A DNA stretch of 64,000 nt from Escherichia coli. GTDB lineage: Bacteria; Pseudomonadota; Gammaproteobacteria; Enterobacterales; Enterobacteriaceae. Both the position numbers and the translations under genes were made by a program. A model generated the notes under the pieces. That model did no database searches, had not been told where the DNA came from, and saw only the letters and a program-made list of their open reading frames with translations. The first letter of the stretch is position 1; each line of letters begins with the position of its first letter. Location: assembly GCF_050920415.1 (NCBI RefSeq), contig NZ_CP169309.1; one strand, 5' to 3'. This document shows positions 1 through 5,245 of this stretch, in pieces.

Positions 1-1184
1 AACGGGGCCATCAACTTGATACGTTTACTGAATAGATCGCGAATCTCTTCGGGCGCACTGGCAATCATTTCTGCCTGTGCACCGCCGTGCATTCGCATCA
101 GACTTACCCAGCGATCGAGGCGAGAAGCAAGACGACGCTGTAATTTCTCATCATCCCAGAAGTTACCTTCTGGCACTGACCACTGCATTTCTTCCGTCAG
201 CCATTGCCGCCAGCCCTTCGCCTGCGCTTTCTTTTCGCTGCATTGCTTACGCCACTCAGCAATAAAGAGTTCATGACGGGCAGCGGTATCATTTTCTAGT
301 TTGCTGACTGTCGGCACTTTTTTGCTGCCCTGCTGAATAATATGCAGCGCCAGCGCATGAAACGTGCGCGCGGTAATGTCTTCGGTATGTAGCCGTTCGC
401 GAATACGCTCATCCATCTCTTCAGCAGCTTTGCGACCAAAAGCCAGCAATAAAATTTGTTCAGGAGCGGCGTCACCTCGCGCCAGCAACCAGCCTGCACG
501 GGCCACCAGCACCGACGTTTTTCCGCTTCCTGCACCGGCCAGCACTAACAGAGAATGCTCGCCGTTAACGACTGCCCGGGCCTGCGCCGGATTCAGCGGT
601 GAAGACTCAACCTGACGGAAAAAATCCGCATACTCGGTAAGCATAGCTTCGGTATACGCCTGATTATGCTGCAACCGAGCGCCTTCAATATCTTTTAACC
701 AGGCCTGACATTTACGCCACGCCTCACGGCAGTTATCGAATTCTTCCAGTCGGTTGACCGGCAACGGCAACGCCAACAAAGCCTGGCGGATTTGTTGCTG
801 CACGCCAGAAGTTTGCTCACGCGTCAGCCATTTATTTTCTCCGGTGCGCGTGGCAATCAAATCCAGTTGCTGCTGTAAAACACCTGCCGCAATTTCGCTC
901 ATCTCCGCACTCCACCGCCGCCAGTGAGCATCAAGATGATGGTAAAAACGCTGCGTCTCGCCCCATTCGGTGCCGTGCAGACGCACCACTTTTTCGTCCG
1001 GCAGTACAAATTCCAGCTCGCCCCATACCAGACCGCGCTTACAGTGAATTGCCAGTAATTGATTGAAAGGAATAAGGTATTCGTGGCGATCGCCGGAGAC
1101 TTTAATCCCGGCATTGAGGATCACCGCCCGATCGTAAGGGTGCTGTGCCAGACGTTTTCCAAGCGTTGTCGCTTTCAGTTCCAT
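1..1184 (-). CDS. helD: DNA helicase IV, N-terminal part (3' end beyond window start)
   Basis: ATG at complement 1182-1184 opens a frame that runs off the window edge; translation begins MELKATTLGKRLAQHPYDRAV..., recognised as HelD; position next to yccF fits K-12 synteny. Confidence 0.8.
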   Translation of the reverse strand, partial: MELKATTLGKRLAQHPYDRAVILNAGIKVSGDRHEYLIPFNQLLAIHCKRGLVWGELEFVLPDEKVVRLHGTEWGETQRFYHHLDAHWRRWSAEMSEIAAGVLQQQLDLIATRTGENKWLTREQTSGVQQQIRQALLALPLPVNRLEEFDNCREAWRKCQAWLKDIEGARLQHNQAYTEAMLTEYADFFRQVESSPLNPAQARAVVNGEHSLLVLAGAGSGKTSVLVARAGWLLARGDAAPEQILLLAFGRKAAEEMDERIRERLHTEDITARTFHALALHIIQQGSKKVPTVSKLENDTAARHELFIAEWRKQCSEKKAQAKGWRQWLTEEMQWSVPEGNFWDDEKLQRRLASRLDRWVSLMRMHGGAQAEMIASAPEEIRDLFSKRIKLMAP

Positions 1185-1306
1185 GACTCTGTAGATCCAC
1201 ACGAAATGATTTCTTATCAGTGTAACCGTCAGAGAAAACGTGCTCCAGCCCAAAAAAACGTTACAATTGCCGCCCATTACTGAAAACCACAGTAAAGCGA
1301 GGTTTT

Positions 1307-1753
1307 ATGCGTACCGTTTTGAACATTCTGAACTTTGTGCTTGGCGGATTTGCCACCACTCTGGGCTGGCTGTTGGCGACTCTGGTCAGTATTGTGCTAA
1401 TTTTTACCTTACCGCTGACACGATCCTGCTGGGAGATCACTAAACTGTCTCTGGTGCCTTATGGCAATGAAGCTATTCATGTCGATGAACTGAACCCGGC
1501 TGGCAAAAATGTGCTGCTGAATACTGGCGGTACGGTATTGAATATTTTCTGGCTGATTTTCTTTGGCTGGTGGTTATGCCTGATGCACATTGCAACGGGC
1601 ATCGCACAATGTATTTCCATCATTGGCATTCCTGTCGGCATTGCGAACTTTAAAATTGCCGCTATTGCACTATGGCCGGTCGGTCGTCGCGTGGTATCGG
1701 TAGAAACAGCGCAAGCTGCGCGTGAAGCCAATGCACGTCGTCGTTTTGAATAA
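1307..1753 (+). CDS. yccF: inner membrane protein YccF (DUF307)
   Basis: 148-aa ORF, ATG at 1307, hydrophobic throughout; recognised as YccF. Confidence 0.9.
   Translation: MRTVLNILNFVLGGFATTLGWLLATLVSIVLIFTLPLTRSCWEITKLSLVPYGNEAIHVDELNPAGKNVLLNTGGTVLNIFWLIFFGWWLCLMHIATGIAQCISIIGIPVGIANFKIAAIALWPVGRRVVSVETAQAAREANARRRFE
1566..1573 (+). other. Chi octamer GCTGGTGG (RecBCD hotspot motif)
   Basis: exact 8-mer read in sequence inside yccF; activity depends on orientation relative to RecBCD entry. Confidence 0.5.
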
Positions 1754-1771
1754 TCCACTAATATGGCCTTT

Positions 1772-3925
1772 ATGCTAAGTCCTTTGCTCAAACGCTATAC
1801 CTGGAACAGCGCCTGGCTGTATTACGCGCGTATTTTTATTGCGCTTTGTGGAACCACAGCGTTTCCGTGGTGGCTGGGTGATGTAAAACTGACGATTCCG
1901 CTGACGCTGGGGATGGTGGCAGCGGCGCTGACAGATCTCGATGACCGGCTGGCGGGACGTTTGCGTAACCTCATCATTACGCTGTTCTGCTTTTTTATCG
2001 CCTCGGCCTCAGTAGAATTGCTGTTTCCCTGGCCCTGGCTATTTGCAATTGGTTTAACGCTCTCTACCAGCGGCTTCATTTTGCTCGGCGGTCTGGGTCA
2101 ACGCTATGCAACAATTGCCTTCGGTGCGTTACTGATCGCCATTTACACTATGTTGGGGACGTCACTGTATGAGCACTGGTATCAGCAGCCGATGTATCTG
2201 CTGGCCGGTGCCGTCTGGTACAACGTCCTGACACTTATTGGTCATCTACTGTTCCCGGTCCGCCCGCTGCAGGACAACCTGGCGCGTTGCTATGAACAAC
2301 TGGCGCGTTACCTTGAGCTCAAGTCACGCATGTTTGATCCTGATATTGAAGATGAAAGCCAGGCACCGCTGTACGATTTGGCTCTCGCCAACGGTCAGCT
2401 GATGGCGACATTGAATCAGACGAAACTCTCGCTGCTGACCCGCTTACGTGGCGATCGTGGTCAACGGGGAACGCGTCGCACGCTGCATTATTACTTTGTC
2501 GCGCAGGATATTCACGAGCGTGCCAGCTCTTCTCATATTCAGTATCAAACATTGCGTGAACATTTTCGCCACAGCGACGTGCTGTTCCGTTTTCAGCGAC
2601 TGATGTCGATGCAGGGCCAGGCGTGCCAGCAACTGTCACGCTGTATTTTGCTGCGTCAGCCTTATCAACATGATCCGCATTTTGAGCGCGCTTTTACGCA
2701 TATTGATGCTGCGCTAGAGCGGATGCGCGATAACGGCGCGCCTGCCGATTTACTCAAAACACTGGGATTTTTGCTGAACAATTTACGCGCTATTGATGCC
2801 CAACTGGCAACAATTGAATCAGAACAGGCCCAGGCACTGCCCCATAATAATGACGAAAATGAGCTCGCTGATGACAGCCCGCACGGATTGAGTGATATCT
2901 GGCTGCGTCTTAGCCGTCACTTCACACCGGAATCCGCCCTCTTCCGTCATGCGGTAAGAATGTCGCTGGTGTTGTGCTTCGGCTACGCCATCATTCAGAT
3001 AACCGGAATGCATCACGGGTATTGGATCTTGCTGACAAGTTTGTTTGTCTGCCAGCCAAACTATAACGCCACGCGCCACCGCCTGAAGTTAAGGATTATT
3101 GGTACGCTGGTAGGTATCGCCATTGGCATTCCTGTGCTGTGGTTTGTGCCGTCACTGGAAGGGCAGCTGGTGCTGCTGGTTATTACCGGCGTGCTCTTTT
3201 TTGCCTTCCGTAACGTGCAATATGCCCATGCAACGATGTTCATCACACTTTTGGTGCTACTTTGTTTTAACTTGCTGGGTGAAGGTTTCGAAGTGGCGTT
3301 ACCTCGCGTAATCGATACGCTGATTGGTTGTGCCATTGCGTGGGCGGCGGTGAGCTACATCTGGCCTGACTGGAAGTTTCGCAATCTGCCGCGCATGCTC
3401 GAACGTGCCACCGAGGCCAACTGTCGCTATCTCGATGCCATACTGGAGCAATACCATCAGGGGCGTGATAACCGTCTGGCGTATCGTATTGCCCGCCGCG
3501 ATGCACACAACCGTGATGCTGAACTGGCGTCGGTGGTATCAAATATGTCCAGCGAGCCGAACGTTACCCCGCAAATTCGCGAGGCCGCGTTTCGGTTGCT
3601 GTGCCTTAACCATACGTTTACCAGCTATATCTCAGCCCTCGGTGCTCACCGGGAGCAGTTAACTAATCCTGAAATTCTGGCGTTTCTTGATGACGCAGTT
3701 TGCTATGTTGATGACGCGCTACATCATCAACCTGCTGATGAAGAACGCGTCAATCAGGCATTAGCTGACCTGAAACAGCGGATGCAGCAACTTGAACCAC
3801 GGGCAGACAGCAAAGAACCTCTGGTCGTACAACAAGTCGGGTTATTGATTGCATTACTGCCAGAGATTGGTCGTCTGCAACGCCAGATTACTCAAGTTCC
3901 GCAGGAAACTCCTGTTTCGGCGTAA
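1772..3925 (+). CDS. yccS: putative transporter YccS (FUSC-like inner membrane protein)
   Basis: 720-aa ORF from 1763; second ATG at 1772 gives the 717-aa form I recall (MLSPLLKRYTW...); 18 bp downstream of yccF. Confidence 0.85.
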   Translation: MLSPLLKRYTWNSAWLYYARIFIALCGTTAFPWWLGDVKLTIPLTLGMVAAALTDLDDRLAGRLRNLIITLFCFFIASASVELLFPWPWLFAIGLTLSTSGFILLGGLGQRYATIAFGALLIAIYTMLGTSLYEHWYQQPMYLLAGAVWYNVLTLIGHLLFPVRPLQDNLARCYEQLARYLELKSRMFDPDIEDESQAPLYDLALANGQLMATLNQTKLSLLTRLRGDRGQRGTRRTLHYYFVAQDIHERASSSHIQYQTLREHFRHSDVLFRFQRLMSMQGQACQQLSRCILLRQPYQHDPHFERAFTHIDAALERMRDNGAPADLLKTLGFLLNNLRAIDAQLATIESEQAQALPHNNDENELADDSPHGLSDIWLRLSRHFTPESALFRHAVRMSLVLCFGYAIIQITGMHHGYWILLTSLFVCQPNYNATRHRLKLRIIGTLVGIAIGIPVLWFVPSLEGQLVLLVITGVLFFAFRNVQYAHATMFITLLVLLCFNLLGEGFEVALPRVIDTLIGCAIAWAAVSYIWPDWKFRNLPRMLERATEANCRYLDAILEQYHQGRDNRLAYRIARRDAHNRDAELASVVSNMSSEPNVTPQIREAAFRLLCLNHTFTSYISALGAHREQLTNPEILAFLDDAVCYVDDALHHQPADEERVNQALADLKQRMQQLEPRADSKEPLVVQQVGLLIALLPEIGRLQRQITQVPQETPVSA

Positions 3926-4517
3926 GAGAGTCAGCCCATTCTGCAAGCTCCTGGCGGCGTGCCACCGGGAGCGCAGCTTCATGAATGCCGATAATGGCCC
4001 CTTCAAGCATAAACAGAATCTTTTCTGTCACCAGACTGTTTTGCTGCCGCAGTCGCAACCAACACATTTTTGCCCCAAGTATACGTAACGCCCGTACATC
4101 CTTAATCCCCACCTCCCCGAGTATCGCTTCCAGATGAAAAGACATATTGGGCAAATCTTTCAGTCTTTCCCGGGTATTGCGCGTGCTTTTCTCTTTCAGC
4201 GCTGCATCGAGAGAATATTTCGACAGACGCACCAGCTTCAGTTGATTTCGCCATAGACTTTCATCAACCCGATAGTAATTGAGGGTAACGGATCGGCCAC
4301 ACTTTTTATATGTCAGCCAGACAGGCGGATGTTTTACACAGTACTGTGCACTTTGCTCACAAGCCCGAAGATACAACTCACCATCAGAAACCATCGCAAA
4401 CACCGTGTCGTCAACGGTCAGGCTGTAACTACCAAACAATGATCGGTATTCAATTGTGCCCAACGTTGCCAGGTATTCTTGTGATTTATAGATCCGCTTA
4501 TAGGAGAGGCTTTTCAT
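3888..4517 (-). CDS. sxy: competence regulator Sxy/TfoX
   Basis: 209-aa ORF (MKSLSYKRIYKSQEYLATLGTIEYRSLFG...) recognised as Sxy; 3' end overlaps 3' end of yccS. Confidence 0.9.
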   Translation of the reverse strand: MKSLSYKRIYKSQEYLATLGTIEYRSLFGSYSLTVDDTVFAMVSDGELYLRACEQSAQYCVKHPPVWLTYKKCGRSVTLNYYRVDESLWRNQLKLVRLSKYSLDAALKEKSTRNTRERLKDLPNMSFHLEAILGEVGIKDVRALRILGAKMCWLRLRQQNSLVTEKILFMLEGAIIGIHEAALPVARRQELAEWADSLTPKQEFPAELE

Positions 4518-4693
4518 AAAATTCCTTTTAAAATCATAACATAAAAGAATGATTCACATTAACGGATCCGTTAACTACGAAAATAGGCAACTTATTCTTA
4601 AGGGGCAAGATTAATTTATGTTTTCCCGTCACTAACGACAAAATTTGCGAGGCTCTTTCCGAAAATAGGGTTGATCTTTGTCGTCACTGGATG

Positions 4694-4713
4694 TACTGTA
4701 CATCCATACAGTA
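4694..4713 (+). promoter_or_regulatory. LexA operator (SOS box) of sulA
   Basis: tactgtacatccatacagta: CTGT-N8-ACAG palindrome 23 bp upstream of the sulA ATG. Confidence 0.85.
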
Positions 4714-4735
4714 ACTCACAGGGGCTGGATTGATT

Positions 4736-5245
4736 ATGTACACTTCAGGCTATGCACATCGTTCTTCGTCGTTCTCATCCGCAGCAAGTAAAATTGCGCG
4801 TGTCTCTACGGAAAACACTACAGCCGGGCTTATCAGTGAAGTTGTCTATCGCGAAGATCAGCCCATGATGACGCAACTTCTACTGTTGCCATTGTTACAG
4901 CAACTCGGTCAGCAATCGCGCTGGCAACTCTGGTTAACACCGCAACAAAAACTGAGTCGGGAATGGGTACAGGCATCTGGGCTACCCTTAACGAAAGTGA
5001 TGCAGATTAGCCAGCTCTCCCCTTGCCACACTGTGGAGTCAATGGTTCGCGCTTTACGCACGGGCAATTACAGTGTGGTGATCGGTTGGTTGGCAGATGA
5101 TTTGACTGAAGAAGAGCATGCTGAACTTGTTGATGCGGCAAATGAAGGTAACGCTATGGGGTTTATTATGCGTCCGGTAAGCGCATCCTCTCACGCAACG
5201 AGACAACTTTCCGGGCTAAAAATTCACTCTAATTTGTATCATTAA
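4736..5245 (+). CDS. sulA: SOS cell-division inhibitor SulA
   Basis: ORF track starts at a TTG (4730); ATG at 4736 gives 169-aa [13 protein letters not shown]..., recognised as SulA. Confidence 0.9.

Follow-up and report, generated by a model that had tools for sequence, protein, structure and literature searches.

The closest described counterpart of the gene pair studied here, yccF-yccS at positions 1307–3925 of a 64,000-nucleotide (nt) stretch of an Escherichia coli chromosome (contig NZ_CP169309.1; the whole stretch is hereafter "the window"), is the "yccFS operon" of E. coli K-12, which was defined, as convergent with sxy, by strand-specific RNA sequencing (RNA-seq; PMC4161252). The K-12 counterparts of yccF and yccS are b0961 and b0960, which are likewise separated by 18 nt; the window genes are 99–100% identical to them and share their order, their gap, and the convergent overlap with sxy. 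No difference of substance separates the two loci, the NCBI Prokaryotic Genome Annotation Pipeline (PGAP) placing the yccS start of the window 9 nt earlier (720 versus 717 amino acids, aa). K-12 annotation and published transcriptomics already cover the genes, their domains, and their status as an operon, and there is nothing new in finding them; the functions of YccF and YccS are still unproven, as a first-pass annotation of the window had held, the literature found on them consisting, apart from the operon map, of list-type mentions.

Described systems outside this operon resemble its parts. Plant ALMT anion channels (AtALMT1, AtALMT9, GmALMT12) are homodimers of one unit, which comprises six transmembrane (TM) helices, with a PF13515 pore core, and a cytosolic helical domain. 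In the available portion of a preprint (bioRxiv 10.64898/2026.03.10.710584), two conserved ALMT arginines, in TM3 and TM6, are described as binding malate, and Rv2571c, a FUSC protein of Mycobacterium tuberculosis that retains the TM6 arginine, is described as mediating alpha-ketoglutarate efflux. As presented in that portion, in which no YccF-like gene is mentioned, Rv2571c, like YccS, is bacterial, has a FUSC domain, is predicted to adopt an ALMT-like fold, and stands without pump partners; its TM6 arginine is essential, and it exports a carboxylate of central metabolism; unlike the two-unit YccS, it is a single unit (355 sites in a mutational scan) and a predicted homodimer, the comparison being one of descriptions, not of sequences. 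The E. coli efflux operons aaeXAB and ydhIJK resemble yccFS in that a gene for a small membrane protein comes first and that an internally duplicated FUSC-family protein is encoded. Unlike yccFS, they include a membrane-fusion protein, and their small protein belongs to DUF1656, has 67–78 aa, and is unrelated to the 148-aa PF03733 protein YccF; AaeB matches YccS at the level of a motif only. Finally, YhfK (b3358), the E. coli paralog of YccS, belongs to the TIGR01667 subfamily and shares with YccS the arrangement in two units and an identity of 24% (611 aligned positions), whereas its gene is placed between crp and argD and, unlike yccS, has no small membrane-protein gene alongside.

Our analysis reveals that yccF and yccS make up a true operon that belongs to the core genome of E. 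coli, in which YccS is, on balance, probably a single-chain ALMT/FUSC-type organic-anion efflux channel and YccF a co-expressed, non-obligatory protein. The genes, their operon, their conservation, the resemblance in fold, and the linkage limited to certain lineages are established here or in published work; channel activity, anion substrate, transport direction, and the role of YccF are all things that we infer. The elements of the pair are as follows:

1307–1753, + strand: yccF coding sequence; 148 aa, small inner-membrane protein with two PF03733/DUF307 repeats (about aa 4–54 and 77–127)
1754–1771, + strand: yccF-yccS spacer; 18 nt, no clear Shine-Dalgarno sequence, holds an alternative ATG at 1763
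1772–3925, + strand: yccS coding sequence; 717 aa, YccS/YhfK-family (TIGR01666) FUSC-type inner-membrane protein
1808–2830, + strand: predicted YccS N-terminal unit; membrane part aa 13–160, cytosolic part aa 165–353; diverged PF12805 "FUSC-like" half
2936–3895, + strand: predicted YccS C-terminal unit; membrane part aa 389–529 (PF13515), cytosolic part aa 539–708; contains R441 (3092–3094) and R512 (3305–3307)
3888–3925, convergent (yccS on +, sxy on −): 38-nt overlap of the 3′ coding ends of yccS and sxy

The segment 1000–4600 is 100% identical to that of E. coli strain MFDS1022581 (NZ_CP169399.1) and is present, at a coverage of at least 80%, in 5425 of 5426 complete E. coli genomes; the RefSeq gene order is helD (−), yccF (+), yccS (+), sxy (−), sulA, ompA, matP. 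A scan of a genome collection with a three-sequence YccF alignment yielded 80 species, all Enterobacterales. The yccF-yccS gap has a median of 18 nt and measures 1–42 nt in 78 of these 80 species, as expected of a bacterial operon; the evidence for co-transcription itself is the published RNA-seq (PMC4161252), not the present analysis. Together, the RNA-seq and the maintained spacing support the one-operon reading of the first-pass annotation. Its gene positions and identities (yccF at 1307–1753 and yccS at 1772–3925, on one strand) agree with the open reading frames and domain matches, its DUF307 label for the small gene with PF03733 and NF008739, its FUSC-like label for the large gene with PF12805, PF13515, and TIGR01666, and its 18-bp spacing holds given the yccS ATG at 1772.

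YccS matches PF12805 (FUSC-like) over aa 66–345 (E = 2.4e-115), PF13515 (FUSC_2) over aa 405–525 (100.7 bits; cutoff, 25.6), and PF04632 (FUSC; 38.1 bits; cutoff, 30.9), the latter two placing it among the FUSC/ArAE-type transporters (class 2.A.85 of the Transporter Classification). Over aa 8–706, it scores above the cutoffs of both TIGR01666 (1258.7 bits; cutoff, 470.75) and TIGR01667 (1162.5 bits; cutoff, 467.8). Membrane helices were taken from AlphaFold2 (AF2) models, a crude hydropathy scan having given an unreliable TM count. The AF2 model of YccS, built from 44 family members, has a predicted local distance difference test score (pLDDT) of 81.6 and a predicted template modeling score of 0.73. 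In particular, the N-terminal part is modeled as six membrane helices (aa 13–160) followed by seven cytosolic helices (aa 165–353), the C-terminal part as six membrane helices (aa 389–529) followed by six cytosolic helices (aa 539–708), and a disordered linker (aa 355–371) lies between the two units. The helix pattern of aa 13–353 recurs in aa 389–708, as in the internally duplicated FUSC/ArAE transporters; an hhalign comparison of the N-half and C-half is collinear over 163 columns at E = 0.03, which is weak sequence support for the duplication. As to topology, prediction of which had been proposed as a check in the first-pass annotation, the models show two sets of six membrane helices for YccS and, for YccF, a four-helix membrane protein.

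Structural matches that cover a full YccS unit are to plant ALMT anion channels only, and these are both the best and the only multi-domain matches of YccS, indicating that the modeled unit has the ALMT fold. Sequence identity to ALMTs is 12–16%; no ALMT family is among the Pfam matches of YccS at E ≤ 0.01, so that YccS is not an ALMT by sequence family, and no Al3+, γ-aminobutyric acid, or malate biology is known for it. Over aa 413–564, the YccS family profile has a remote match to GmALMT12 (E = 2e-4) and another to AtALMT9 (E = 0.04). R441 and R512, which are invariant over YccS and YhfK sequences, align with GmALMT12 arginines in the TM3 and TM6 regions (a sequence alignment, not a structure overlay). 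Judged by this alignment and by the description in the available portion of the preprint, R441 and R512 may be the equivalents of the malate-binding residues of ALMTs. Whereas ALMTs are homodimers, YccS contains two diverged units in a single chain, and its N-terminal unit is without the TM6 arginine.

These features suggest a working model. Transcription of yccFS would proceed from the helD-yccF intergenic region and end head-to-head with sxy. The YccS chain would fold as two tandem units (six TM helices plus a cytosolic helical domain each) and be pseudo-dimeric, an architecture that an ALMT, or a single-unit FUSC protein like Rv2571c, would make from two separate chains. According to the model, YccS most likely has one central arginine-lined pore, by which an organic anion of the cytoplasm (in all probability a metabolite of the carboxylate type) would exit the cell down its electrochemical gradient, with neither a membrane-fusion partner nor an outer-membrane partner being required. 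YccF would be co-expressed with YccS in Enterobacterales and some Pasteurellaceae and would not generally be needed for the YccS family to function. A pair of uncharacterized genes now carries a testable proposal, namely that YccS resembles two fused ALMT/FUSC units that retain candidate pore arginines; Rv2571c, a bacterial relative, has lately been reported to export alpha-ketoglutarate.

Several points weigh against this model. The characterized E. coli FUSC paralogs, such as AaeB, are pump subunits that work with a membrane-fusion protein and are not channels. The profile of the YccS N-half alone, searched against PDB sequences, returns coiled-coil noise only and no ALMT similarity, and hhalign places a methionine in the N-half at the position equivalent to R512, so that any YccS pore would be asymmetric. 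Beyond the operon map, the literature found holds list-type mentions only (a screen of dye uptake, meropenem-associated genes selected by machine learning, a silver screen, a butanol-evolved line with a promoter mutation, and a list of excludons), none of which establishes a function, and no reports of transport or electrophysiology for YccS or YhfK. Finally, YccF is strongly conserved and, in this clade, stays beside yccS where both occur, so that a true functional link is conceivable.

YccF matches PF03733 (DUF307) in two stretches (97.2 bits; cutoff, 27) and the NCBIfam equivalog NF008739 over its full length (298.3 bits; cutoff, 213); both scores exceed the curated cutoffs, and the 51-residue "inner membrane component" domain occurs twice in this protein of ~150 aa. 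The AF2 model of YccF (pLDDT, 92.5) comprises helices at aa 2–30, 32–49, 69–102, 108–122, and 132–147 and strands at aa 54–58 and 127–131. As modeled, YccF is a pseudo-symmetric (pseudo-two-fold) four-helix membrane protein, for which no informative structural relative was found. The residues that are invariant in the family are N6, G14, P36, P51, and G53 in repeat 1 and W82, G87, P109, P124, and G126 in repeat 2. YccF is the most conserved protein of the block, with a median identity of 83% in distant Enterobacterales versus 70% for YccS, and the E. coli and Pasteurellaceae proteins are 59% identical for YccF and 36–37% identical for YccS. The relatives of YccF form 2259 clusters at 50% identity. 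The YccF-domain proteins P0346, P0375, P0380, P0352, P0294, and P0308 comprise fusions with zinc ribbons, with a double zinc ribbon, with DUF2510, or with a Rap1a immunity domain, together with one protein of 834 aa in which no further domain is recognized; such architectures might point to the role of the DUF307 module. Eight unannotated "phage" records of a phage collection (H69–H76) also carry YccF homologues, one of them, 92% identical, being encoded on a 2.3-kb "Escherichia phage" fragment; bacterial contamination seems likely, because several of these records are very short.

The distribution of the two genes bears directly on whether they form one system. In Enterobacterales, yccF and yccS are adjacent in 80/80 species, mgsA-helD-yccF-yccS-sxy-sulA-ompA is collinear in 80/80 as far as the contigs extend, and csgI was detected upstream in 54 of 78 intact loci; since the block from csgI to ompA is wholly syntenic in this order, the adjacency of yccF and yccS there is inseparable from general synteny. 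Outgroups were PLSDB records that are really whole chromosomes, a small and opportunistic sample, and representatives of distant YccF clusters lie mostly on contigs too short to reveal neighbors. In Aggregatibacter (Pasteurellaceae), the order is DUF2057-mgsA-yccF-yccS, without helD and with different downstream genes; the pair has outlived rearrangement there. (A homology search seeded with Aggregatibacter YccS returned Pasteurellaceae only.) In Aggregatibacter segnis (L088, 6534–7456), the end of mgsA lies 8 nt before the start of yccF on the same strand, which suggests that mgsA-yccF-yccS is one transcription unit in that species.

Other lineages have one gene without the other, or both apart. 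The Proteus mirabilis chromosome NZ_OL790811.1 retains an otherwise intact block, mgsA-helD-yccS-sxy-sulA-ompA, from which yccF is cleanly gone: the helD-yccS interval is only ~120 bp (a 139-bp tblastn gap minus the unaligned yccS N-terminus), and there is no YccF match anywhere in the record. In Haemophilus influenzae, a DUF2057 gene lies directly upstream of yccS, with neither mgsA nor yccF between. In two Vibrio replicons, helD is divergent from yccS and the YccF homologue (35–38% identity) is 130 kb or 1.4 Mb away; in Aeromonas, both genes are present, ~0.8 Mb apart. Chromosomes of Acinetobacter baumannii and Neisseria gonorrhoeae encode YccS (50% and 36% identity) and give no YccF match. 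Conversely, YccF relatives without a FUSC neighbor occur in Photobacterium, in the alphaproteobacteria Phreatobacter and Oleisolibacter, and on one untyped metagenome contig, and further YccF homologues occur in Enterococcus, Bacteroidales, and actinobacterial records. Of the co-occurrence proposed as a check in the first-pass annotation, the part that stands is Enterobacterales (Proteus excepted) and some Pasteurellaceae; elsewhere, yccS is without yccF or unlinked to it. The two genes are not both present and linked wherever either occurs, and linkage is confined to Enterobacterales and part of the Pasteurellaceae: the operon is real, yet no obligate two-protein system is implied. As side observations, in Vibrio sp. 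HDW18 (L097) the unlinked YccF homologue has genes for an M23 peptidase and a bactofilin-like protein as neighbors, and the second gene upstream is of the DUF2057 (csgI-like) type, a setting that may be a remnant of the enterobacterial csgI...yccF neighborhood; and the PLSDB records NZ_OL790811.1, NZ_CP077849.1, NZ_AP026896.1, and NZ_CP119140.1, of 2.2–4.9 Mb, are filed as plasmids and are evidently whole chromosomes.

One alternative makes YccF a subunit dedicated to the YccS channel, with an accessory, gating, or assembly role; it would be a lineage-specific counterpart of AaeX and YdhI and act with YccS in one complex. The gene order (small membrane protein first, FUSC protein later) parallels aaeX-aaeA-aaeB and ydhI-ydhJ-ydhK, YccF is under strong purifying selection, the short spacer with no Shine-Dalgarno sequence is compatible with translational coupling of yccF and yccS, and the pair is adjacent in Aggregatibacter despite a different helD and downstream context. 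However, Proteus, Acinetobacter, and Neisseria have YccS and no YccF, and in Vibrio and Aeromonas the two genes are unlinked; the YccF relatives lacking a FUSC neighbor weigh against a subunit dedicated to YccS, and YccF homologues occur in Enterococcus and Bacteroidales records as well; the paralog YhfK has no YccF-like neighbor; YccF is unrelated to AaeX (hhalign probability, 0.3%); and YccF and YccS diverge at very unequal rates between E. coli and Pasteurellaceae. We regard a dedicated subunit as possible but doubtful, and the comparative data caution against presuming an obligate YccF-YccS complex. A narrower form, in which YccF would be a lineage-specific gating or assembly subunit docked on an asymmetric, ALMT-like YccS, the two together serving as an overflow valve for a carboxylate of central metabolism such as alpha-ketoglutarate, malate, or D-lactate, is improbable; if true, YccFS would be the first two-component ALMT-type channel, and the widespread DUF307 family would have its first function.

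Other readings assign YccS a partner, a pathway, or a regulon. YccS as the inner-membrane part of a tripartite pump of the AaeAB/MdtNOP/FuaABC kind, exporting aromatic or xenobiotic acids via a membrane-fusion protein encoded at a distance and TolC, would accord with its place in the Pfam clan of such pumps (the PF04632 match and a weak match to MdtO) and with a TM3 "RIIGT" motif common to YccS and AaeB (BLASTP E = 0.002). The similarity to AaeB is marginal, however, and the neighbors of yccS in E. coli, Aggregatibacter, Haemophilus, Vibrio, Acinetobacter, Aeromonas, and Neisseria include no gene for a membrane-fusion protein or outer-membrane factor; the adjacent membrane-fusion gene of a tripartite pump, present in aaeXAB and ydhIJK, is lacking beside yccS in eight lineages, and we consider a pump of this kind quite improbable. 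A tie to methylglyoxal overflow, with YccS exporting a product of the pathway such as D-lactate, is suggested by the gene that travels along: mgsA is in the yccF-yccS block of all Enterobacterales sampled, 8 nt upstream of yccF on one strand in Aggregatibacter, and three genes from yccS in one Vibrio. However, mgsA is absent near yccS in H. influenzae, Vibrio THAF191c, Aeromonas, Acinetobacter, Neisseria, and Variovorax, and in E. coli it belongs to a separate transcription unit, yccT-mgsA (PMC4161252). We judge this tie very unlikely; the mgsA link was set aside as accounted for by inherited gene order. Membership of yccF-yccS in the SOS (LexA) or FNR regulon, with a function in DNA damage or anaerobiosis, draws on literature reports that include yccF in one table of SOS genes, that ascribe to yccS a LexA box and activation dependent on RecA, and that place an FNR peak from chromatin immunoprecipitation at yccF/helD (Grainger et al. 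2007). Against these stands one site in particular:

4694–4713, upstream of sulA: near-consensus LexA box TACTGTACATCCATACAGTA, the sulA operator and the only good LexA box within 1000–4700

Because this is the sole such box, the literature listings of LexA boxes for yccF and yccS are unsupported by the sequence; the single CTG-N10-CAG near yccS is inside coding sequence and compatible with chance, with 26 such matches per 64 kb. The LexA/SOS link was accordingly rejected, one box belonging to sulA and the other match being at chance level. Published data add that the yccF transcript is uninduced in an SOS time course and that deletion of fnr hardly alters yccF promoter activity, and the proposed FNR site (Grainger et al. 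2007) matches exactly at 1054–1077, which is ~230 bp upstream of yccF and falls within the coding part of helD. Control by the SOS response or FNR is already largely refuted, and a function built on it is scarcely credible. Candidate expression signals of the two genes are the following:

1262–1267, + strand: TACAAT, candidate −10 element for a yccFS promoter, located between the divergent genes helD and yccF; a conserved GCTCCAG precedes it at 1242–1248
1296–1299, + strand: GAGG resembling a Shine-Dalgarno sequence, 7 nt upstream of the ATG of yccF

The candidate −10 element is kept as TACAAT, TAGAAT, or TAATAT in 14 of 18 aligned Enterobacterales, and GCTCCAG...TACAAT (1242–1267) is probably, on this sequence pattern, the core of the yccFS promoter. 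GAGG or GGAG sits at the matching place in most aligned Enterobacteriaceae. A consensus promoter scan gave 0 sites, calling neither this −10 element nor an internal promoter, and terminator-like matches in the region are at chance level (6 versus 4.6 expected). The yccS reading frame runs to 3925 from either of two starts, the ATG at 1763 used by PGAP (9-nt gap, 720 aa) or the ATG at 1772 used in K-12 (18-nt gap, 717 aa). The ATG at 1772 alone is kept across Salmonella, Klebsiella, Kosakonia, and other Enterobacteriaceae, 1763 being ATA in Salmonella and Klebsiella; the missing clear Shine-Dalgarno sequence at yccS is compatible with low or coupled translation. Matches to defense-system and phage family libraries were absent, and an Rfam scan of 800–4800 gave nothing above noise.

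At the 3′ end, the coding sequences of yccS and sxy overlap in 50 of the 80 Enterobacterales species; in 29 of the other 30 they are no more than 72 nt apart, and in the last 180 nt. Convergent transcription of the two genes into each other looks conserved, and the yccS/sxy pair appears as a convergent excludon in PMC12288877.

One further element lies within the operon:

1566–1573, + strand: Chi octamer GCTGGTGG, exact, inside yccF, at codons G87-W88-W89

This Chi octamer, at the position given in the first-pass annotation, is without evident significance and is unremarkable. Chi sites are generally enriched in the window (16 versus 2.06 expected from shuffles), and, of the three codons, G87 alone is invariant in the YccF family. 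Of these 16 sites, 12 lie on the − strand and 4 on the + strand, and the + strand shows negative GC skew all along the window, so that the site in yccF has the minority orientation. The same skew indicates that the − strand is the leading strand and that yccF-yccS is transcribed head-on to replication.

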